A DNA stretch of 59,951 nucleotides from a virus: the IMG/VR virus record IMGVR_UViG_3300035683_000005, positions 1 through 59,951 of that record. One strand, given 5' to 3'. Shown one piece after another: positions 227 through 34,029 of the stretch. Every line of letters starts with the position of its first letter. The first letter of the stretch is position 1. The notes beneath the pieces were generated by a model. The model was not told where the DNA came from and did not search any database. It was given only the letters and a program-made list of their open reading frames with translations. Both the position numbers and the translations under genes were made by a program.

Positions 227-499
227 ATGCCGATCATGTCGCCGAGAAATCCAGGCTGGACGGCCAGCCGCAACGAGCTGCTGGAGATGCTGGACCTGCC
301 GAAGAGGCTGCCACCCGAAGGTCGGATGCACGACATCTGGAGCCGACAGGGCTACTTCGTTCGGCTTCTGCCGCAGGGTCGGAAGACGAAGGGCCGACGG
401 ATGGAGCATCGGCTCCAGGTGCAGTGCAACGAGTGTCGCGAGTGGTTCAGCGCGGGCCGCCTGGCACAGCACGAGGCAAGCTGCGGGCGGCAGAGCTGA
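227..499 (+). CDS. Hypothetical protein, 90 aa, with a C-terminal CxxC...HxxxC zinc-finger-like motif
   Basis: ORF track. AAGGAG lies upstream of the ATG. The motif CNECREWFSAGRLAQHEASC is present. Confidence 0.65.
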   Translation: MPIMSPRNPGWTASRNELLEMLDLPKRLPPEGRMHDIWSRQGYFVRLLPQGRKTKGRRMEHRLQVQCNECREWFSAGRLAQHEASCGRQS

Positions 500-584
500 G
501 CCGAAACCCCCGCAAGGGGGTCTGCGAGCGGATGGCTACCGCCGCACTGATGAGGCAAGCCAACACACCGACAAGGAGCAGACC

Positions 585-2599: not shown

Positions 2600-3180
2600 C
2601 CCTCCTCCCCACTTCCGAGCGCCGGCTGCTCTCCCAGGGGCGCCGGCGCTCCGCCGTGGCTCACGACGAAGTTGATGGTCATGTGGACAGCCACCGCCCC
2701 GCTCAGACCCACGTCCAGTCCCTCTTTGAAGATACCGTGCGCCTTGCCAAGGTCACGCAGCGCTGCCTGCGGGTCGAAGAACTCCACCTTCGGGTTGCCG
2801 TTCGAGTCAAAGCTGAAGGATTTGATGAGGTGTCTGCGCTCCATGACAGCATCTGGATCGAGCCGAAGCTGACCGTTCGGACCCTGTGTCACAACTTCGC
2901 CGATGTCGCCTTCTGCGATCTTTGTGATCCGCGCGAGCACCTCGTTCTTGCCCATCGTCAGCTCCGCGAGTCTCGCCTCAATTGCCGCTCGGATGTGCGG
3001 CTTCCAACGAAGCGCTCGCCCGTACGACTCGTCGGCGAACCCGACCGCCTTGCCAGAGGCCGTTGGGTTCAGCGTCTCACCGCTCCACTTGCCGGTGCAG
3101 TAGTCTTCGACGAAGCGACGTTGCCTATCGCTTGCAAGCGCCTGGTACGCCTCCTCGCGGATGGTCAACTCTTTGCTCAT
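2596..3180 (-). CDS. terS: Terminase small subunit (Terminase_2 / P27-like)
   Basis: N-terminal RQRRFVEDYC...NPTASGKAVGF...YGRALRWKPHIRAAIEARL and C-terminal AALRDLGKAHGIF match the family pattern as I recall it. RBS ggaggagc. Confidence 0.7.
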   Translation of the reverse strand: MSKELTIREEAYQALASDRQRRFVEDYCTGKWSGETLNPTASGKAVGFADESYGRALRWKPHIRAAIEARLAELTMGKNEVLARITKIAEGDIGEVVTQGPNGQLRLDPDAVMERRHLIKSFSFDSNGNPKVEFFDPQAALRDLGKAHGIFKEGLDVGLSGAVAVHMTINFVVSHGGAPAPLGEQPALGSGEEG

Positions 3181-3268
3181 GCTCCTCCTCTGCCCAACGG
3201 CGGCGTTTCAGTGAAGTTGTCTGCGCGGGGCGCTCCCGTTACCCGGGAAACACAGTGAGTACGCAGAA

Positions 3269-3957: not shown

Positions 3958-6381
3958 TTATACAGGCACGAAAAACGCTTGCTGAGTCGTGTCGAAATCC
4001 TTCTTGAGCTGCCCCTTGTCCATCTCGACTAGTCTGCCAGTGCGTACGAAATCCTTCAGCGTCTCTTGGAGTGCTATCCGCGCCCCCAGGCGGTGCTTTC
4101 TGAATGCCGACAGGTTCGCTGCGCGGCGCTGAATGTAGACGTAAGGCACCACTCGCTTCGAGTGCATGGCCCGAGTCACTCCATACGTCTCGAGTTCCGC
4201 GAATGGCCTCGTCAGGTAATCCTGCACAATGCGCTCAAGGTCGGCCGCCTGCTTTGAATCGCCTTCACCAACATCACCTGTGGCAAACCGATTCGAGATG
4301 TTTTGCGCGTCGGCTTTCACCAACTCGATGGCCCACACCGCTTCTTCAAGGGTAACGCAAGGCGCATGGGGCCGATCCGCCGCGGCAAGCATACCACACA
4401 GCCGCAGCGCCTTCAGGTGTGCGCGGTTCCAAAGCTGGCGCACCCCGTCGTTGCTACCAGAGCGGATGTGTTCGTCGCAGTACAGGTCGAAGGCGTCTAA
4501 CGTCATCTGCGCATCCGCGGTCATGTCCACGTTGGCCCAGGCGTTGTTCGCCTGCATCTGAAGGCAGGTGGTCAGCAGTTCTGCAAAGCGGTTCACCATC
4601 CACTCGGGCGGGGCGGCAAATGCAGCGCGATTCCGGTCCGGACGTTTCCCGCGGTACTCGATGATAAGGAACCGCGGGATCAGACCATCGGCAATGTGTT
4701 GCAGTGACAGTCCACTGTAAAACGTCTCGGGGGTGCTTTCGCCAAGCAGAGTTACGGCGGGGCTTTCAACAGGTTCGGTGTTCTTCGCAGTGTCTGCGTA
4801 CGCGCTCGGTCGGAGCATGGCACCACGGCCGCTCTTCGTATACAAGTCGAGCATTACTCGTCGCATCATCCGCGTCAGTGCGTTGTCCTCGGTTTCAGTC
4901 ATGCTTTGCAGCATCAGACCGAATTCGCCAAGGATGCTTACGAAGCACCTCTGTTTGTTGACAGCGCGCAGCATACCCTGGCCGCTTGAGAACACCGCCG
5001 GGCCGATGAATTCGTCGACGAGTGGTACTTGCATGCGCACGGCTGACACCAGCCGGTCGATTCCGCTTGTTCCTCCTTCCTTGCCTACACCCGTATCCGC
5101 CAGCACGATCATGTACTGGTTCAGTCCGCTCCCGCTGATGTTGAATTGCCGTCCGACCACACCCGAACACAGTGCAATTGCGGCGGCGACGCTTATCTCA
5201 AGCACCGGGCGGTGGGCCGTGGCGTAAATATACCGTGCTACGTCGCCCACGAACCCCGGTGGCACCTGGAAACCCGTGTCTGTGGGGGGTGGTACGGGTA
5301 GGGTACCGGAAGGGTTTACAGGGGAATTTCGCGGTAGACTACTATCACCCGCCCGGTTAGCGTAGCCCACATCAGCCACACCAGGAAGCAGAGCATTACC
5401 CAGGCGAGAACCATCAGGAAGAGCACGAAAATCCAGGACAGGAGGAATCGGATGGTGGCCATTGCCGTTCGCCTCTAGGAAAGCAGGTTGTTGAGCAGGT
5501 AGAGCGCCAACCGCATGACGATCAGCAGCCACGTCAGCGCTCCCGTTAAGCACAGGAGCAGGTAAACCAGTTCGCGTCTGTTCATGGGGCGTCTCCAGTT
5601 GGCTGAAGTCGATGATGTCAGGCTGGTTGGACCGGATTTTACGCAGGCAGCGGTCAAGGTAGTCGTCGCGCAGCGCCTTATCGCGCTTCCCAAGCCGCGA
5701 CATCCGAAACAACCGCTTCACCTGTTCGTTCGAGGGTGTATAGAAGGCGAGGATAGCCAGCAATGCAAAGTCTGCTTCGCTTTGGCTAGGCCATTCGCCT
5801 TCCCACTGCCCGTTGCAGAGCCGAGTGAACTTGTCGCCGTTTGCCGCCTCGGCGGCCATCTCTACCACGTCGGCGTCTTCTGCGATGGCGTCGTACTCCA
5901 CAAGGTCCGTCTCAGCCACGCCGTTCTGCATCTCGTCCCACAGCTGCGTCAGAAGCTCCTGGCAGTCCACAATGGGCACGTCCCGTAGCGTCCGCCCCGT
6001 GCAGATCATGTACCGGGATTCTGAGTACACCTCAACACGGTCCCGCTTCACACCCTGCGGCACCGACCCCCGACATATGATGTGGACTCCTTTTCCGCTC
6101 TGTGAAAGTTCGGCGTAGGTATCGAACAACTCGTAGATTCGCGTGTGGCGCGCTACTTGATCGGGTGACTGCGGTGAATCGAGATCGATAAGCGTATACG
6201 GATCTTTCGCCGTGAGCACGAAGCCGACGTGCGGTAGACCCGTAGCCAGCGCCTCGTCATACGTTCCCCAGGTCATGGAGTTGTTGACACTGGCGCGGAA
6301 ACCGCTCCTCGGACTGATCGGTTCCTTATCGTCCCCCGCCGCTACCCACTGCTTCAGCGCACGGAGCTCGGCGGGGATCAT
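3958..6381 (-). CDS. Bifunctional primase-polymerase / helicase: PrimPol N-terminal domain, PriCT-like segment and a DUF3987/D5-like ATPase
   Basis: 807 aa. N-terminal ...HVGFVLTAKDPYTLIDLDSP. PriCT-like GDKFTRLCNGQWEGEWPSQSEADFALLAILAFYT. Walker A ADTGVGKEGGTS. Confidence 0.75.
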   Translation of the reverse strand: MIPAELRALKQWVAAGDDKEPISPRSGFRASVNNSMTWGTYDEALATGLPHVGFVLTAKDPYTLIDLDSPQSPDQVARHTRIYELFDTYAELSQSGKGVHIICRGSVPQGVKRDRVEVYSESRYMICTGRTLRDVPIVDCQELLTQLWDEMQNGVAETDLVEYDAIAEDADVVEMAAEAANGDKFTRLCNGQWEGEWPSQSEADFALLAILAFYTPSNEQVKRLFRMSRLGKRDKALRDDYLDRCLRKIRSNQPDIIDFSQLETPHEQTRTGLPAPVLNGSADVAADRHAVGALPAQQPAFLEANGNGHHPIPPVLDFRALPDGSRLGNALLPGVADVGYANRAGDSSLPRNSPVNPSGTLPVPPPTDTGFQVPPGFVGDVARYIYATAHRPVLEISVAAAIALCSGVVGRQFNISGSGLNQYMIVLADTGVGKEGGTSGIDRLVSAVRMQVPLVDEFIGPAVFSSGQGMLRAVNKQRCFVSILGEFGLMLQSMTETEDNALTRMMRRVMLDLYTKSGRGAMLRPSAYADTAKNTEPVESPAVTLLGESTPETFYSGLSLQHIADGLIPRFLIIEYRGKRPDRNRAAFAAPPEWMVNRFAELLTTCLQMQANNAWANVDMTADAQMTLDAFDLYCDEHIRSGSNDGVRQLWNRAHLKALRLCGMLAAADRPHAPCVTLEEAVWAIELVKADAQNISNRFATGDVGEGDSKQAADLERIVQDYLTRPFAELETYGVTRAMHSKRVVPYVYIQRRAANLSAFRKHRLGARIALQETLKDFVRTGRLVEMDKGQLKKDFDTTQQAFFVPV

Positions 6382-6626
6382 GCTGCCGTTGCATCCTCGA
6401 TAAGCGGCTCGCCGGTCAGATACTCGTAGAGGACCTGGACGTTGTTGACGGACGGGTTGCGGATCTTCCCGCTCTTGAACTTACGCAGCCACGGGAATGT
6501 GATCCCCTTTTCAGAGATGGCTGCGAAAACGGCGGGGAGCGACTCTTTGTTCCGGCAGTGCTCATCCAGCAGCTGCCGCGTCCGTTGCATCAGACTCTGC
6601 TCGGGTACAACCTCCGTGTTATTCAT
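6378..6626 (-). CDS. Small putative DNA-binding (HTH-like) protein, 82 aa
   Basis: Internal ATG (MNNTEVVPEQ...) preceded by aaggagctgaaagtg. First gene of the minus-strand replication operon. ATGA coupling to the primase gene. Confidence 0.5.
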   Translation of the reverse strand: MNNTEVVPEQSLMQRTRQLLDEHCRNKESLPAVFAAISEKGITFPWLRKFKSGKIRNPSVNNVQVLYEYLTGEPLIEDATAA

Positions 6627-6961: not shown

Positions 6962-8518
6962 ATGATGTTTTCGCCACAACAGGCCGCCGCGATTGAGTTC
7001 GCGCGTTCCGGCAAGGGCAGCGGACTCGTGGTCGCTGTCGCTGGTGCAGGTAAGACGACGACTTTGGTCGAGATGTGCAAGGTGAGCAACGCGAAGAACA
7101 TCGCCTTTGCTGCCTATAACAAGGCGATCGCAGCCGAGATCGGCACCAAGCTCGAAGCGGCGGGACTGAAGGCACCCCGTGTTCGTTCCGGCACCTTTCA
7201 TTCCTTCGGCTTCTCGAACTGGCGCCAGGCCGCGCCCAAGGTGCGGGTCGACAAGAACGATGAAAAGACCAAGCACCTCCTCGAGCAGCGCAAGGTACCC
7301 GACGAGTTCCACCCGTTCGTCAGCCGACTCGTGTCCTTGGCGAAGCAGCGCGCTTTCGGCGTGTTGATCCAGACTGACGACTATCGTGCCTGGGTGGACA
7401 CCGTCGCGCATTTCGATCTGGACGATCTACTCCCGGCCGACCCCAGCCAGACTGCCGAACAGCTGCGCAAGCAGGTACAGGCTGGGATCGCCCACGCCTG
7501 GCATGTGTTGCACGCCAGCACTCAGATGGACTACAATGTCGTCAACTTCGACGACATGATCTACGCACCGCTTGTGCATGGTGCGCGGGTTTGGCCGAAC
7601 GATCTTGTGCTTGTCGACGAGGCACAGGACACCAATCCCGCCCGCCGCGCGCTCGCAAAGATGATGCTTCGGCCGGGTGGTCGGCTGATTGCGGTGGGCG
7701 ACCCACATCAGGCCATCTACGGGTTCACGGGCGCGGACAACGATTCGTTGGAGATCATCCGCCGCGAGTTCAACTGCACTATTCTACCACTGACCGTTAC
7801 GTACCGCTGCCCGAAAGCGGTGGTGGAACACGCCCACCAGTGGGTTGAACACATCACCGCTGCGGACACGGCCCCCGAGGGTGTGGTCCGTACGATGAAG
7901 GACGACGAGTTTCGGAAGCTGACAGGCGCGGAACTCGGGTGGCAGGACGTCGTTATCTGCCGCAACACCCAACCGCTCGTAGAACTCGCCTTCGATTTGA
8001 TTCGCCGTCGTATTCCCTGCCATATCGAGGGTCGGGACATCGGTGCCGGACTGATCGCTTTCACGAAGAAGTGGAAGAGCGTGACGACGGTCGGCGCGCT
8101 TCGGATCCAGATCGACGACCACCTCGACCGCGAAACCGAGCGGCTGATGTCGAAGGGTCAGGAGCAGAAAGCGGACAACCTGGCGGACAAGGTTGCCACA
8201 CTGCACGTGATCATGGAGGATCTTGCCGATGACGCGCCGCTGTCCGAGGTCGCTAGAATCATCGAGACGTTGTTCGAAGACACGGAACCCGGTGAGGCGC
8301 CGAAGAACGTGACGCTTTGCACAGCGCACCGATCTAAGGGGCGGGAATGGGTGCGGGTGTACCTGCTTGGGCGTAACGTCTTCATGCCCAGCCCCTACGC
8401 GCGCCAGCAATGGCAGGCGGAGCAAGAGGATAACCTCTGCTATGTTTCCGTTACGCGCGCCATGCAGGAGCTCGTGGAGGTGTGGGTTGATCCACGGAAG
8501 TACGGTCGCCGGCGGTAA
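6962..8518 (+). CDS. UvrD/Rep-family (SF1) DNA helicase
   Basis: Walker A VAGAGKTTT. Motif II LVLVDEAQD. C-terminal TAHRSKGREW. Confidence 0.85.
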   Translation: MMFSPQQAAAIEFARSGKGSGLVVAVAGAGKTTTLVEMCKVSNAKNIAFAAYNKAIAAEIGTKLEAAGLKAPRVRSGTFHSFGFSNWRQAAPKVRVDKNDEKTKHLLEQRKVPDEFHPFVSRLVSLAKQRAFGVLIQTDDYRAWVDTVAHFDLDDLLPADPSQTAEQLRKQVQAGIAHAWHVLHASTQMDYNVVNFDDMIYAPLVHGARVWPNDLVLVDEAQDTNPARRALAKMMLRPGGRLIAVGDPHQAIYGFTGADNDSLEIIRREFNCTILPLTVTYRCPKAVVEHAHQWVEHITAADTAPEGVVRTMKDDEFRKLTGAELGWQDVVICRNTQPLVELAFDLIRRRIPCHIEGRDIGAGLIAFTKKWKSVTTVGALRIQIDDHLDRETERLMSKGQEQKADNLADKVATLHVIMEDLADDAPLSEVARIIETLFEDTEPGEAPKNVTLCTAHRSKGREWVRVYLLGRNVFMPSPYARQQWQAEQEDNLCYVSVTRAMQELVEVWVDPRKYGRRR

Positions 8519-12548: not shown

Positions 12549-12764
12549 ATGATGAAGCAGGGAACCGTGAAGTGGTTTAACGAGACCAAGGGATTCGGGT
12601 TCATCACCCCGAACGACGGATCGCGCGACGTCTTCGTGCACCACACCGCGATCCAGAAGCAGGGATTCCGTACGCTGGCTGAGGGGGAGCCGGTGCAGTT
12701 CGAGGAGGTCGCCGGCAACGGTGGCAAGGGGCCCGCGGCGGAGAACGTGCAGAGCTTGAAGTAG
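12549..12764 (+). CDS. csp: Cold-shock protein, CspA family, 71 aa
   Basis: [35 protein letters not shown] carries the RNP1 (KGFGFI) and RNP2 (VFVHH) motifs. Internal ATG of ORF 12207..12764. Confidence 0.9.
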
Positions 12765-12768
12765 CAGG

Positions 12769-12866
12769 TGGCGGGTAAGCTCCAACGCCACGTCAAGGCA
12801 GCGGAGAAGGGCGCGGCTTGAGTGTCCAGAGCTGCTAGCGGGGGTTCGATCCCCCCGCCCCGCCAT
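12769..12866 (+). ncRNA. tRNA-like structure with a 7-bp acceptor helix and a 7-bp T-stem carrying a canonical TTCGATC loop. It has no recognisable D or anticodon arms.
   Basis: TGGCGGG (12769-12775) pairs perfectly with CCCGCCA (12859-12865). GCGGGGG (12838-12844), loop TTCGATC, CCCCCGC (12852-12858). It starts 5 nt after the csp stop. Confidence 0.45.
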
Positions 12867-12893
12867 TGTGGACATCGACAAGGAGGAACGCAG

Positions 12894-13121
12894 ATGCCTG
12901 TTCCCGTAGTGAGCAAGAATCACTCAGTTGGCAACCAGACGTATATCGGCGAGGTCCAGATCGTCCTGTGCCCACAGTGCATCGGACACGGTCGTGTCGT
13001 CGTCGAGATTACCGCCGGTAGCATTAGCGTGAAGCAAGAAGAGCTTTGTGCGTACTGCCGCGGTGAGCGCGTTGTCGAGTCGAGGATTCACCACCAGTAT
13101 TGCATCGGAGCGGATAAGTGA
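12894..13121 (+). CDS. DnaJ-type zinc-finger (CxxCxGxG) protein, 75 aa
   Basis: CPQCIGHG and CAYCRGER motifs. ATG preceded by acaaggaggaacgcag. Confidence 0.65.
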   Translation: MPVPVVSKNHSVGNQTYIGEVQIVLCPQCIGHGRVVVEITAGSISVKQEELCAYCRGERVVESRIHHQYCIGADK

Positions 13122-18918: not shown

Positions 18919-19038
18919 ATGCCCATGTCAGGGGGCTTGAAGACCCGACGAGTAGCACCAGACGGCAGAGATCCCTTGACCTGGGTGTGACGCGCCCCGC
19001 CCCGGTCCTATCTTCAAGGGCGCACGACAACACAAGGA

Positions 19039-19581
19039 ATGACGCACATGGCACAAGGTGCACGCAAGCCCGGACGGGCGGGTTCCGCCCCTACCACCGA
19101 GACGACGTCGAACACGGAGCCCGCTGCGGCGACGGCCGAGAACACCCCTGCCTCCGAGACCACCGCCACCGCTCCGGTGACGGAGTCGGCCCCGACGGCC
19201 ACCGAGCCGACACCGGCCCCCGCGGCCGAACCCGCCCAGCCGGCGCCGCCGGCCGCCGCGACGAAGCCGGCCAGGGACCAGAAGAACGGGATCACGCGCC
19301 CCGCCGGGAACACCGCGACCGGTCGGGTGTGGGCCATCGCCGACGAGCTGACCACCACCAAGCGCGCTGCCGAGGGTGCCAACGGCGACGAGCGCGCGGG
19401 TCGCAAGGAGGTGATCGACGCTTTCACCGCCGAGGGCGGGAACCAGTCGACCGGCGCCACGCAGTTCGGCCGCTGGCTGCGCTACAACGGGTTCACCGAG
19501 GCGCGCGCCGGTGCTGCCCAGCCCGCCGCGGCGCAGCCCGCGCCCGCGACGGTGGAACCCGCCGAGGCGGTCGAGGCGTAG
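19039..19581 (+). CDS. Hypothetical protein, 180 aa. Ala/Thr/Pro-rich N-terminus plus the repeated module (RVWAIADEL...RKEVIDAFTAEGGNQSTGATQFGRW).
   Basis: ORF track. RBS acaaggaatgacgcac. Confidence 0.65.
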   Translation: MTHMAQGARKPGRAGSAPTTETTSNTEPAAATAENTPASETTATAPVTESAPTATEPTPAPAAEPAQPAPPAAATKPARDQKNGITRPAGNTATGRVWAIADELTTTKRAAEGANGDERAGRKEVIDAFTAEGGNQSTGATQFGRWLRYNGFTEARAGAAQPAAAQPAPATVEPAEAVEA

Positions 19582-19602
19582 TCCACAACGGTCGCCGAAG
19601 TT

Positions 19603-19635
19603 CGAGGGCGGGGGTACGCACCCCCGCCCTTCGTG
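19603..19635 (+). terminator. GC-rich hairpin after gene 19039..19581, a possible terminator
   Basis: agggcggggg-tacgca-cccccgccct, followed by tcgtgtc. Confidence 0.4.
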
Positions 19636-19658
19636 TCTACCTCAACGACCATCCGAAC

Positions 19659-20417
19659 ATGGAAGTTCTGAACAACCAGCCTCCGATGGGTACCGACCGG
19701 CACGCATTGGGGCAGCTAAAGGTTCACAGCTACTTCCCGACGATCCAGGGCGAAGGTATCTTCGCGGGACAAGCTGCGTTCTTCATTCGGCTGATGGGCT
19801 GCAATCTGCAATGCCCAGGATGCGACACCGAGTACACCACGGACGCTCCGCTCTTGCTGTATCCCCGCGCCGTTGTTGAGCTCCTCGAAACGGCCGGTCG
19901 CCACTACGGCGACTTGGTCGTCATCACCGGCGGCGAACCCTTCCGTCAGAACATCACGCCGGCGGTTCTGGAACTCGTGGAACACGGCTACCACGTTCAA
20001 ATCGAAACCAACGGCACGCTCTACCTCGAGAACTTTCCGAAGAGCGAGGAAGTCACGATCGTCTGCAGCCCAAAAACCGCACGGATTAACCCCGTTTTGG
20101 CCGCCCGTGTGGACGCTTTCAAATACGTGATTCAGGCAGGCCACGTTGCGGACGATGGTCTTCCGACGGACGCGCTCTACAACCTCGCCGGCATTGGGCG
20201 TGATCCCGTACGTACGGGTCGCATTGCACGTCGGGTTGCACGGCCGCCGGACGAGTGGGAGGGTCCTGTCTACGTTCAACCGATGGATGAGAAGGACGAT
20301 GTAAAGAACCTGAACAACTTGCGGGAGGCGGCGCGTACCGTGATGAACGGTAGCCCGCGCGACGAGCTGCTCTACGTCCTTGGTACGCAGATGCACAAGG
20401 ACATCGGGCTGCCCTGA
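19659..20417 (+). CDS. queE: 7-carboxy-7-deazaguanine synthase (radical SAM QueE)
   Basis: TIQGEGIFAGQAAFFIRLMGCNLQCPGCDTEY is the QueE CxxxCxxC radical-SAM signature. Internal ATG of ORF 18987..20417. Confidence 0.85.
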   Translation: MEVLNNQPPMGTDRHALGQLKVHSYFPTIQGEGIFAGQAAFFIRLMGCNLQCPGCDTEYTTDAPLLLYPRAVVELLETAGRHYGDLVVITGGEPFRQNITPAVLELVEHGYHVQIETNGTLYLENFPKSEEVTIVCSPKTARINPVLAARVDAFKYVIQAGHVADDGLPTDALYNLAGIGRDPVRTGRIARRVARPPDEWEGPVYVQPMDEKDDVKNLNNLREAARTVMNGSPRDELLYVLGTQMHKDIGLP

Positions 20418-31190: not shown

Positions 31191-31219
31191 TTGACAGGTA
31201 ACCGGCTGGGTACTATATT
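31191..31219 (+). promoter_or_regulatory. Promoter, TTGACA-N17-TATATT
   Basis: -35 at 31191-31196, -10 at 31214-31219. Confidence 0.75.
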
Positions 31220-31364: not shown

Positions 31365-31793
31365 ATGTACAGCGAAGAACTGATCCGGGCGTTGGAGAAC
31401 TCGAGTCCGCAGGAGTACGAAAACGACTCACAAGACCTCGAGGATGCTGAAGCGAGCGGGCTTACAGTCGTATATGCGGACCTGAATACCCTGCAACTCG
31501 ACATCGACAGCATCGAGGACTACGCGCACTACCTGAAGAACACGCACCGCCTGATCCAGCTCGGCTACTTCAAGAGCACGGACGAGCTGACACTCGCGAC
31601 GGAAGAGTGGCGGAGCAGGAACGGCAAGTGGCACGTGCAGATTCACCTGCGGTCGAACATCGAGACGGAAGAGCGGATCATGTTGCAGGCGCTTCTCGGA
31701 AGCGATCGGGTTCGGGAGTTTTGCAATCTGCGGCGTTACCGGGCGGGCGTTCCTTCGAACGAGTGCATTCGCCTGTTCCGTCCGGGGCTTTGA
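31365..31793 (+). CDS. Hypothetical protein, 142 aa
   Basis: ORF track. Confidence 0.6.
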   Translation: MYSEELIRALENSSPQEYENDSQDLEDAEASGLTVVYADLNTLQLDIDSIEDYAHYLKNTHRLIQLGYFKSTDELTLATEEWRSRNGKWHVQIHLRSNIETEERIMLQALLGSDRVREFCNLRRYRAGVPSNECIRLFRPGL

Positions 31794-32056
31794 TGGCACA
31801 GACAAAGGGCGGTCAGATCCAGAAGAAGGTCGACGAGCTGGTGGGCAAGATGCCACTACAGTTGATCGAGGCGCTGCGGGAAGAGTTCAAAACGGAATAC
31901 TCGGCAGTCTACAGCGTGGAACTGGAGCGAATGGTCGCCAAGCGCAACACGGGCGACGGCGCCCTGAGCATCGAGGAAGACGAGTTCGTCCGCGTGTGGC
32001 AGAAGGGCTACAGCGCCGCGATTCATGTGGTCACAGGCGCTGTGAAGCAAAAATGA
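31793..32056 (+). CDS. Hypothetical protein, 87 aa
   Basis: TGATG coupling. Internal ATG (MAQTKGGQ...) of ORF 31607..32056. Confidence 0.6.
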   Translation: MAQTKGGQIQKKVDELVGKMPLQLIEALREEFKTEYSAVYSVELERMVAKRNTGDGALSIEEDEFVRVWQKGYSAAIHVVTGAVKQK

Positions 32057-32261
32057 AGAAGGGCGGTCCACCCACTGGAAGAAAGCCGAACATGACCCCG
32101 CCAGGACACTTAGCCGCAGCTTGTGCGGGTTGTGCTCCTGCCCCTTGCGAAGCTGCTCCGGGACGCGGCACGGCTGACTGGTGTGGTTGGACCGCCCCTT
32201 TCCAACTTCTGACGGTACACAACGTATCGTCAGATTTTCCCCAACGCAAGGAGAAGATACC

Positions 32262-32480
32262 ATGTCCGCAACCACCACGAAGCTCCGCCTGCACCGTGAG
32301 ACGGTCCGCAACCTCACTTCTCCACCGGTGGTGTTCGTGCGTCGCCCGAAGGCAGACTTCTCGGCCCGCAACTGCGAGCAGACATCGCCCTCGATGGAGT
32401 ACAGCTGCTACATGAGCTGCGCGGAGACGGTGTACATGAACTGCAACCCCAGCGTGGAGTACACCTGCGACACGCTTTGA
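32262..32480 (+). CDS. Cys-rich small peptide, 72 aa, with a leader-like N-terminus (KLRLHRETVRNLT). Possible RiPP or bacteriocin-type precursor.
   Basis: ATG preceded by caaggagaagatacc. The core SARNCEQTSPSMEYSCYMSCAETVYMNCNPSVEYTCDTL has 5 Cys and repeated xEYxC units. Confidence 0.55.
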   Translation: MSATTTKLRLHRETVRNLTSPPVVFVRRPKADFSARNCEQTSPSMEYSCYMSCAETVYMNCNPSVEYTCDTL

Positions 32481-32516
32481 GCGTGTCCACTTGGCGAACA
32501 ACGTAGTCGTTTAGAA

Positions 32517-32554
32517 GATGCCGAAGGCCGCCTTACCAGCGCGCCTTCGGCATC
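32517..32554. terminator. 12-bp perfect hairpin between convergent genes; its 3' arm lies in the endolysin coding end
   Basis: gatgccgaaggc (32517-32528) pairs with gccttcggcatc (32543-32554). Confidence 0.45.
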
Positions 32555-33213
32555 CTGCTGAACTCCTCGCCTGCCTTGAAGCCGAGTGCCTCAAGCTGGG
32601 TCTCCGTCAGGTAGCTCCAGTCACCGTCGTGCCTGTAGTTCGTCACGACGACGTGCTCGTTGAGCTGGTTCGACCACACGCGGGTGCCAGGGGGGATCGC
32701 GAATGGGGCGTCCGCGTCGTGCCGGAAACGGCTGAGCACAGCGTAGACCTTGTCGCCGGGGCAGGTCCGCTTCATCCAGTCGCGATGACCCGTGACCTTG
32801 TACCCCTTGTCGATCTCCCCCAACTCCAGCCCCACACGGATCAGACCGCGCACCGCCTCGATCATCGCCGTGCCGGGAGTCGTCACCTGGCCGTCGATCA
32901 GCAGACAGATTCCGATCGAGTCCGCGTTCGCCGGCCCCGCGTGGGCACCACGGTACTGCCAGCCCCGCCCCTCGTAGATCCTTCCCGACGGAGCGACCCC
33001 GAAGTTGTAGCCGATCCCGTCCCACCCATGCGTCTCGACGTGATACTTCTCGACGCTCTTCCAGGCCGCGACCTCTTGCGCGTCGGTCGCGTTCTCCGAC
33101 AGAGCCGGACGGTAGCTGTTGTGGATCACTACGTTGCGCTCGGCACCAGGATCGAGAGACCCCGTGCCGCCCTTGGCACCCCATGCGGAGCGCCTGGTGA
33201 TCTCGATGCTCAC
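32533..33213 (-). CDS. Endolysin: N-acetylmuramoyl-L-alanine amidase (PGRP / Amidase_2 fold)
   Basis: VIHNSY..., YHVETHGWDGIGYNF, GAHAGPANADSIGI and GHRDW...CPG motifs. Confidence 0.85.
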   Translation of the reverse strand: MSIEITRRSAWGAKGGTGSLDPGAERNVVIHNSYRPALSENATDAQEVAAWKSVEKYHVETHGWDGIGYNFGVAPSGRIYEGRGWQYRGAHAGPANADSIGICLLIDGQVTTPGTAMIEAVRGLIRVGLELGEIDKGYKVTGHRDWMKRTCPGDKVYAVLSRFRHDADAPFAIPPGTRVWSNQLNEHVVVTNYRHDGDWSYLTETQLEALGFKAGEEFSRMPKARW

Positions 33214-33443
33214 TTTCCCTCCTGTATGATACGCCGGCGTTGCTGACGCAGGCTAATGAGATTGGGGATGTAGAAGATCAGTGCGAACACCTGGATGGCG
33301 TTCAGAACGAAGTTTGCGAACGACATTAGCCAGGTCTTCTCTTCGTTGACCGCGAACCAGCTATAGACTACGATCGCCAGAAGAGACGGAACTACCACCG
33401 TCACCACCACCCGCTGCACCGCGTTCAGGTTCGGAAACTGCAT
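33210..33443 (-). CDS. Small two-TM membrane protein, 77 aa (holin, antiholin or spanin-like lysis accessory)
   Basis: Strong RBS gaggaggtgctg before the ATG. Two hydrophobic helices. ATGA coupling to the endolysin. Confidence 0.6.
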   Translation of the reverse strand: MQFPNLNAVQRVVVTVVVPSLLAIVVYSWFAVNEEKTWLMSFANFVLNAIQVFALIFYIPNLISLRQQRRRIIQEGK

Positions 33444-34029
33444 CAGCACCTCCTCGGTTTGGGTTATCCACAACCATCCCGTAAGGATCACGGGTAGGAC
33501 TCGCCTTGTCGTACCAGCGCCTATCCATCGATCTGGGCTTATCTCCCTCGTCCAACGCAGCAATCTGGATCTTATCGATGGTGCGCACAAGCCACAAGAC
33601 CAGAGGCATGTCCTGGTAGACCAGAAGGATGTTTTGCAGCACCTTTTGTGTCTGATAACCGAACACGCCGACGACAACCGCCTTCGTCGTATACCGCTTT
33701 ATCTCCAAGCCGAGGAGTTCAGAAGGCTCGGACATCCAGTACCACGCGATGTCGACAGCGAATCCGACAGCGGGTAGACACAGTAGTACAGACTTCCGCA
33801 GCCAGAACTTTGCGAGGTCCACCCATTCGAAGTCATCTCTTGGATCTGGGCTGAGTCTGGATATTGCAACGCACGTGAAAAGCTCTACTACCATGCCGCA
33901 GAGGATTAGAACAAGAAATCCCACATTACTGCGGCCAAATACACCAACTACGCTGTCCCATGACCACGGAAGCAGAACCGCGATGGAGCCAGCCGTGATG
34001 ATTGTTTCCTTATTAAGCATGAGCTCCAC
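33361..34029 (-). CDS. Multi-TM membrane protein, putative holin, 222 aa
   Basis: Three to four hydrophobic segments. Sits directly upstream of the endolysin cassette. Confidence 0.5.
   Translation of the reverse strand: MELMLNKETIITAGSIAVLLPWSWDSVVGVFGRSNVGFLVLILCGMVVELFTCVAISRLSPDPRDDFEWVDLAKFWLRKSVLLCLPAVGFAVDIAWYWMSEPSELLGLEIKRYTTKAVVVGVFGYQTQKVLQNILLVYQDMPLVLWLVRTIDKIQIAALDEGDKPRSMDRRWYDKASPTRDPYGMVVDNPNRGGADAVSEPERGAAGGGDGGSSVSSGDRSL

Follow-up and report, generated by a model that had tools for sequence, protein, structure and literature searches.

A lone gene for a lanthipeptide precursor-like peptide at the end of the plus-strand genes of a probably lytic phage

The last plus-strand gene of virus record IMGVR_UViG_3300035683_000005 encodes a 72-aa peptide whose leader is of the kind found in a class I lanthipeptide precursor family, on a phage genome that codes for none of the corresponding enzymes. 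The window, meaning the whole stretch of DNA that was analyzed, is the complete 59,951-bp record, which has direct terminal repeats and a GC content of ~60%. We give about an even chance to the reading that the open reading frame (ORF) is a captured, diverged LanA-type precursor dependent on host enzymes.

The phage genome codes for a primase, helicases, DNA polymerase I, ThyX, a preQ0 DNA-modification module, the large terminase, and tail genes. A tyrosine integrase had no match in the 59,951-bp genome, and for this reason the phage is probably lytic. Its replication genes resembled those of siphophages of Pseudomonas, Stenotrophomonas, and Xanthomonas at 40–45% identity, and its major-capsid-size protein had no match among cultured phages. 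An initial annotation of this DNA had described the peptide gene as an orphan at a strand switch before a convergent lysis cassette, and the gene map agrees: 32262..32480 (+) is the final plus-strand gene, the 3' end of an Amidase_2 endolysin gene lies opposite, and beyond the endolysin on the minus strand come holin-like and then tail-fibre genes. We treat the endolysin as the context of the peptide gene only and claim no functional tie between the two. The features of the gene and its convergent neighbor are as follows.

32248 to 32253, plus strand: Shine-Dalgarno sequence AAGGAG, 8 nt before the ATG
32262 to 32480, plus strand: gene of the 72-aa precursor-like peptide (P0001), coordinates with the stop codon, from the ORF and its codon statistics
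32262 to 32369, plus strand: leader-like part, residues 1–36, from the leader profile and the family alignment
32280 to 32315, plus strand: leader motif K7–L18, KLRLHRETVRNL
32370 to 32477, plus strand: core-like part, residues 37–72, with five Cys, nine Ser/Thr, and in-frame internal repeats
32533 to 33213, minus strand: endolysin (N-acetylmuramoyl-L-alanine amidase), the convergent neighbor (phrog_1493, 2.5e-31; Amidase_2, 1.3e-17)

The ORF is very probably a real gene. Its translation is the one first proposed, and the strong ribosome-binding site that had been claimed for it was found as AAGGAG at 8 nt from the start codon. Third-codon-position GC was 0.86, the same as in the neighboring endolysin gene, and the codon log-odds were +0.198 per codon, the top value of the six frames. 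The control for coding consisted of 119 ORFs of 50–120 aa that are read in a different frame within confident genes and are thus spurious by construction; the codon score of the peptide gene was attained by 4.2% of them and its third-position GC by 2.5%, and none of the 119 attained both. The overlapping frame 32053..32415, named initially as the fallback real gene, scored −0.316 per codon, and its GC was higher at the second codon position (0.73) than at the third (0.51), the signature of a wrong frame; by codon statistics it is non-coding. Antisense ORFs over the peptide gene had negative codon scores, and a longer version starting from a GTG at 32181 was rejected, as it adds 27 codons with a negative score.

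Within the leader-like part, the motif residues L8, L10, R12, and L18 form LxLx[KR]x5L with Arg replacing Lys, and V23 and V26 preserve the hydrophobic spacing of the bacterial family described below. The phage peptide has V-R-R-P where that family has V-x-G-G, with R28-P29 aligned to the double glycine, and it starts with MSATTT, not with the Lys-rich stretch typical of the family. The five Cys residues previously noticed in repeated C-terminal units are C38, C49, C53, C61, and C69, all within the last 39 residues, and the repeats proved to be in frame at the DNA level: an 18-nt repeat matches at 16/18 positions with a spacing of 60 nt (MEYSCY/VEYTCD), and a 12-nt repeat matches at 11/12 positions with a spacing of 24 nt (YMSC/YMNC). 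The core contains three [ST]-x4-C units (S44–C49, T56–C61, and S64–C69) and is rich in Tyr, Met, and Glu; CxxC pairs were absent from the peptide. The Atlas model of the peptide was disordered (pLDDT 0.24), with no predicted fold, as would usually be expected for precursors.

Class I LanA peptides of Bacteroidetes carry LxLxKx5L in place of FxLD, and many of them end in GG and have a C39 protease in the cluster (PMC7268733). The motif of the phage peptide had been described initially as a recurrent leader of ribosomally synthesized natural products (RiPPs), which fits both that published motif and the dozens of Cys-rich peptides that we located beside LanB, LanC, and C39-ABC genes. These came from a pattern scan in which K-L-x-L-x-[KRQ..]-E-T-[ILV..]-x-N-L was back-translated with CTN leucines and run over one genome per species for 185,579 species; it found at least 120 bacterial places, against ~35 expected by chance on our own estimate. 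At 60 of the 80 loci listed there were 69 distinct peptides of 47–86 aa with at least three Cys. Their consensus reads M-K-K-x-x-K-K-L-x-L-x-[KR]-E-T-L-R-N-L-x-x-x-E-L-x-x-V-x-G-G and is followed by a Cys/Thr/Ser/Gly-rich core. The leader ends in G[GAS] in 62 of the 69, a few members are without GG, and Arg occupies the Lys position of the motif in 28 of the 69.

After clustering of the 273 neighboring ORFs, the top recurrent neighbors in the listed loci were a C39-peptidase ABC transporter (8 loci), LanB (7 loci), and LanC (7 + 4 loci). Among the listed loci, the leaders closest to that of the phage were those of L052 (KLELNRETVRNLTSDD), flanked by LanT and LanB, and of L053, which has two LanC genes downstream. 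Most bacterial members among the listed loci had no enzyme within 4 kb; all four tested genomes with family peptides code for LanB somewhere, and a genome with a chance match was without LanB. Given the LanB, LanC, and C39 neighbors and the presence of LanB elsewhere in genomes with distant precursors, the family is, as judged from gene content, one of class I lanthipeptide precursors that often work in trans.

Approximately 52 of the 60 listed loci were labelled Acidobacteriota (30 of them Thermoanaerobaculia) and the rest Bacteroidota, Actinomycetota, Myxococcota, and others, a spread biased by the codon choice of the pattern, which favors GC-rich genomes, and drawn from 80 listed loci out of at least 120 places. 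The Bacteroidota and Myxococcota named in the initial annotation were thus present, but in this codon-biased scan the family was mainly one of Acidobacteriota. Several other properties of the family were observed. It is expanded in some Acidobacteriota (G004, G184, G240, G274, and G123), with 14 to at least 20 matches each, while most of the sampled Acidobacteriota had no match, and one locus (L103) has four tandem precursor genes. A subtype without GG (KLxLNQETLxNL...) occurs in Ca. Angelobacter/Terriglobia (L036, L045, L047, L088, and L109), where its surroundings are housekeeping genes and no maturase is encoded within 4 kb.

A leader HMM of the 69 peptides, run over 1,154 six-frame segments, gave the phage frame 30.3 bits (E 1.3e-8) and the next frame 7.3 bits. 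Most of the 30.3 bits are circular, since the pattern that fetched the family came from the phage peptide itself. The independent test lies in the columns that the pattern left free. Those that fitted were a Met placed 6 residues ahead of the motif, as is the mode in the family, H11, R16 (49/69), T19 (the commonest residue), and V26 (35/69). The summed log-odds of the free columns were attained by 4e-4 of random peptides, and those of the seven columns in or just after the motif by 5e-5. By this sequence comparison, the phage ORF probably belongs to the leader family. In common with class I precursors, it has the motif near the N-terminus, a core with Cys and Ser/Thr, and a length between 45 and 90 aa, its 72 residues also falling inside the family range of 47–86. 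It departs from them in having no GG, GA, or GS at the leader end and no LanB and LanC in the same genome. For double-glycine export through C39, the hydrophobic residues at −4 and −7 (V26 and V23) are present and the G-G/A/S at −2/−1 is missing. A recent capture of the leader from bacteria was rejected, as no bacterial leader exceeded 33 of 45 nt in DNA identity.

LanB (PF04738), LanC (PF05147), and C39 (PF03412) had no match anywhere in the complete 59,951-bp phage genome, which extends the earlier remark that no maturase is adjacent to the gene. The sole radical SAM protein of the genome, encoded at 18987..20417, was considered as a peptide maturase and rejected, since it is QueE of the preQ0 DNA-modification module. 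Complex prediction for the peptide, in which the L052 LanB N-terminal domain served as a stand-in, gave a score of 0.47, compared to 0.00 for the best control. Of 80 solved complexes, 58 reached the mark used, as did 2 of 110 mismatches; at scores of 0.60 or below, only 7 of the 80 and both mismatches did so. The runs shared at least 27% of their contacts, and the pLDDT of the partner was at least 34. The prediction gives weak support to binding of the leader by LanB. A solved complex of NisB with the NisA leader exists, so the pass may be a memory of that fold.

Searches with the whole peptide returned little. A word-indexed search of 5.8 billion proteins found the peptide itself only, and in tblastn no match among 50,697 phage records had an E below 6. 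Three repeat-rich proteins came back from an exhaustive HMMER search of 1.84 billion representatives; two exceed 5,000 aa, and their many short repeats sum against residues 20–50. We judged these matches spurious. The search of TIGRFAM and RiPP-precursor models that had been recommended produced no curated match: NCBIfam and Pfam hmmscan of the peptide found none, and neither did TIGR04149 (GG_sam_targ_CFB, the radical-SAM-targeted GG peptides of Bacteroidota) at the peptide ORF, its single match in the genome lying elsewhere (8331–8387) at 12.7 bits, under the 25-bit cut-off. In PHROGs, residues 23–70 matched phrog_8826 (function unknown) marginally, with an E of 0.0095, and an Atlas lead from the peptide to a Lant_leader_dom cluster scored only 0.83. 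The core had no relative in the protein searches. Homologues of the peptide were also absent from 20 ThyX-related viral loci (35–47% identity), and a synteny search of viral contigs found no relatives of the endolysin. Because no whole-length homologue was found, the case for the peptide draws nothing from conservation or selection.

The signals around the gene that may bear on its expression are listed below.

31191 to 31219, plus strand: sigma70-type promoter, a perfect copy of the phage's own (TTGACA-N17-TATATT), the nearest upstream of the peptide gene
32054 to 32204, plus strand: structured spacer with a long imperfect stem, 22-nt arms at 32054–32075 and 32183–32204 (I1), from the inverted repeat and folding
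32208 to 32234, plus strand: hairpin of ~10–11 bp followed by AUUUU (I4), ~27 nt before the ATG, from the fold and inverted repeat
32470 to 32486, plus strand: small 7-bp hairpin over the stop codon, with no U-run, from the fold
32517 to 32554, not assigned to a strand: perfect 12-bp inverted repeat (I2) between the convergent genes, over the last codons of the endolysin (z −4.4)

Promoter sites with up to two mismatches numbered 12, compared to 0.94 expected, and none of them lies in 32057–32261. Since the promoter at 31191..31219 is the nearest one upstream, transcription of 31365..31793, 31796..32056, and the peptide gene probably starts there. A 205-nt spacer separates the upstream gene from the peptide gene, and the region 32050–32265 folds at −88.6 kcal/mol (z −4.64), with none of 200 shuffles equally stable; Rfam had no match for the spacer RNA. 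The hairpin at 32208..32234 is possibly an attenuator or partial terminator. In addition, 32245–32256 is complementary to 32138–32149 (I3, 83%), a pairing that could mask the ribosome site, and the whole of 32054..32234 may act as an attenuator or translational switch by which expression is gated. Because a hairpin with a U-run stands between the promoter and the gene, expression of the peptide may be low. As to the terminator-like hairpin said to follow the gene, hairpins are indeed present there, but both 3' hairpins are without a U-run on the plus strand and a terminator scan called nothing at either; the larger, at 32517..32554, looks more like a terminator serving mainly the minus strand.

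Two strict patterns scanned over 2.9 million viral contigs recovered three further lone precursors, in records G001, G002, and G003.

G001, 6291 to 6521, plus strand: precursor L029, MKLTLHRETIRNLTG..., 76 aa, immediately upstream of terminase genes, from the pattern scan
G002, 3031 to 3228, minus strand: precursor L030, MKLTLNQETLRNLNQ..., 65 aa, five Cys, no GG, from the pattern scan
G003, about 12668 to 12910 (L153, about 1331 to 1576), minus strand: precursor MRRLTLSRETLRNLTESSLRRVVGG..., GG kept, from the pattern scan

The G002 peptide resembles the GG-less subtype of Ca. Angelobacter, with a P-T-F stretch common to both. G003 is complete at 64.7 kb, has direct terminal repeats, and codes for an integrase; its precursor lies among tail and membrane-protein genes. 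LanB, LanC, and C39 had no match in any of the three records. A helicase is all that our phage has in common with G003, and it shares nothing with those portions of G001 and G002 that were compared; this scarcity of shared genes points to independent captures of the precursor. A looser DNA pattern gave 39 places in viral contigs and no new true case beyond L153 and L025; the other places were unlike these peptides, which, at the level of the pattern, shows the apparent true cases to be specific.

The leader family also bears on the likely host. In a codon-free check, the profile of the family alignment (A1) was run against 301 sampled genomes per phylum and matched 17/301 Acidobacteriota (16/300 without the unpublished genome G160) compared to 0/301 Pseudomonadota, and on account of these counts the family points from Pseudomonadota towards Acidobacteriota-like hosts. 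A contrary cue comes from the replication genes, which resemble those of phages of Pseudomonadota, the phylum in whose 301 sampled genomes the family had no match. A terminase search of 401 Acidobacteriota genomes was not informative, giving only matches of 43% identity in three genomes.

The gene is coding by its codon statistics, it bears a leader of the class I type, and its phage is without the enzymes. Because the phage encodes no dehydratase, cyclase, or leader peptidase, we infer a host-dependent mechanism, and with it the binding, modification, release, and biological effect of the peptide. During infection, host enzymes of the LanB/LanC type would bind the peptide through its leader, Ser and Thr would be dehydrated, and Cys would add to them to form thioether rings in the core. 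As the double glycine is replaced by R-P, C39 would neither cut nor export the product, which might then act inside the cell or leave at phage lysis, the lysis genes adjoining the peptide gene. A secreted bacteriocin, as raised in the initial annotation, is for the same missing cut and export site not the simple reading. Several points count against a host-dependent precursor: there is no whole-length homologue and no matching curated leader model, the GG and the Lys-rich N-terminus are missing, and the profile is partly circular.

Some of these same points would suit an ordinary, unmodified small phage protein, Cys-rich and perhaps disulfide- or metal-bound, in which the leader-like N-terminus is a relic of capture or a coincidence. 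The ORF is an ORFan without homologues, the phage genome has no maturase, the GG is lost and the N-terminus atypical, and the weak PHROG match over residues 23–70 (phrog_8826, E 0.0095) is to a family of unknown function. We nevertheless consider this account unlikely, as the leader match stands far above other frames of the genome and reaches into pattern-free columns, the peptide has neither CxxC pairs nor a predicted fold (pLDDT 0.24), and three unrelated viral records show this architecture again. Chance is more improbable still as an explanation. An open frame arising in GC-rich DNA between convergent transcription units would have no homologues, and the codon score and third-position GC are each reached by a few spurious ORFs (4.2% and 2.5%); yet none of the 119 reaches both, AAGGAG lies at the ideal distance, the distance from the ATG to the leader match is exactly the one usual in the family, and every overlapping frame scores lower. 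We regard the absence of a gene here as the least probable of the readings.

Two further alternatives concern what a precursor-like gene does. It might be a captured host precursor in decay, drifting without a present function after losing the GG and the Lys-rich start; the missing leader features, the terminator-like hairpin upstream, and the best bacterial DNA match of 33 of 45 nt, meaning that capture was not recent, would all agree with this. Drift is expected to erode codon bias, however, and here the third-position GC is as high as in the endolysin (0.86 in both), the ribosome site is strong, and the frame is intact, so that we place little weight on decay. Alternatively, the peptide could be a decoy or jammer whose enzyme-binding leader half occupies host lanthipeptide enzymes or regulators and blocks host lanthipeptides (e.g., anti-phage ones) without yielding a useful product. 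The canonical N-terminal half of the leader with GG changed to R-P, the position of the gene in a plus-strand operon of early/middle type on a phage without an integrase match, and a weak LanB docking signal that suits binding as well as processing would favor this, and intracellular class I lanthipeptides are reported to defend Streptomyces against phages (bioRxiv 10.1101/2024.06.26.600839; PMC12360287). A pure decoy would have no use, however, for a Cys/Ser/Thr core of 36 residues whose in-frame repeats are maintained, and outside Actinobacteria no anti-phage lanthipeptides are known so far; we hold this reading to be improbable. Equally doubtful in our estimation is the broader proposal that the phage wields a cut-site-less mimic of a host lanthipeptide precursor as an intracellular weapon, either as a LanB/LanC decoy or as a modified peptide that serves the phage (e.g., by excluding other phages).

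Read as a captured, host-dependent precursor, the peptide can be set beside known systems. It shares with the LxLxKx5L LanA peptides of Bacteroidetes (pinensin group; Walker et al. 2020, PMC7268733) its L8-x-L10-x-R12-x5-L18, its shortness, and a Cys/Ser/Thr-rich C-terminal core, and its nearest bacterial look-alikes lie beside LanB, LanC, and C39-ABC genes. Unlike them, it is phage-encoded, is without GG, has Arg for Lys, matches no curated model, and has no LanB or LanC adjacent or genome-wide. The Cys-rich peptides of Acidobacteriota (L052, L053, and L037; MKKxxKKLxLx[KR]ETLRNL..LxxVxGG) are alike in the motif, the Met offset, and total length, and also in the Arg before N-L, the Thr after it, and hydrophobic residues at two later leader positions; they differ from the phage peptide with its R-P for G-G, its MSATTT start, and its relative-less, Tyr/Met/Glu-rich repeat core.

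In the literature searched, the peptide systems described for phages are entire clusters carried by temperate phages, e.g., sublancin on SPbeta (bioRxiv 10.1101/2020.10.01.322628). These likewise place a ribosomal peptide precursor on a phage genome, but they bring modifying enzymes, a transporter, and immunity and act as a prophage, whereas here the precursor is alone and there is no integrase match. The 'lanthiphages' of Actinobacteria (bioRxiv 10.1101/2024.06.26.600839) are comparable in that class I-type peptides take part in phage–host conflict and act inside the cell. They are, however, host-encoded defence clusters with their own enzymes and with other leaders and cores. The prochlorosins are many scattered precursors on a cyanobacterial chromosome that are served by one class II enzyme, ProcM, and carry a Nif11/NHLP leader. 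They offer a parallel for precursors lying far from their enzyme with a leader recognized in trans, as for most bacterial members listed here, which have no enzyme within 4 kb, although the enzyme class, the leader, and the chromosomal rather than phage location all differ. A metagenome study of RiPPs and phages excluded viral contigs from its RiPP set (PMC11118758), and our search of the literature found no paper on lone RiPP precursors in phage genomes. On the reading given here, a probably lytic phage would carry, by itself, a LanA-type precursor that has no cut site.

RiPPs are normally found via their enzymes, and precursors travelling alone are therefore missed. If the reading of a captured precursor is correct, a lone precursor on a phage with no integrase match would mean that phages borrow host peptide-modifying enzymes, a new kind of auxiliary gene with a possible bearing on bacterial competition, phage–phage exclusion, and escape from chemical defence. 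If the intracellular weapon were real, the recurrence of lone precursors in unrelated phages would amount to a general, undescribed exploitation of host peptide-modifying enzymes. All of this goes beyond the sequence likeness of the phage peptide and is what we infer from it. The leader also brings to light a very large group of lanthipeptide precursors in Acidobacteriota that has hardly been described; some genomes have 19 to at least 20 copies.

Other observations were made on the surroundings of the gene. The two plus-strand genes at 31365..31793 and 31796..32056 encode 142 aa and 86 aa, respectively, and are probably co-transcribed with the peptide gene; they had no Pfam or PHROG match and no relative in G001, G002, or G003. 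Upstream of the endolysin, two membrane-protein ORFs (33210..34029, minus strand) overlap by ~80 nt. Neither had a Pfam or PHROG match, and no spanin was recognized there. One of them, starting near 33443, is likely a two-helix holin, and the other (33361..34029) encodes a multi-helix protein of 222 aa. Near the left end of the genome, Rfam matched a type II hammerhead ribozyme at 499..564 on the plus strand, with 37.7 bits against a gathering threshold of 37 and an E of 4e-4.
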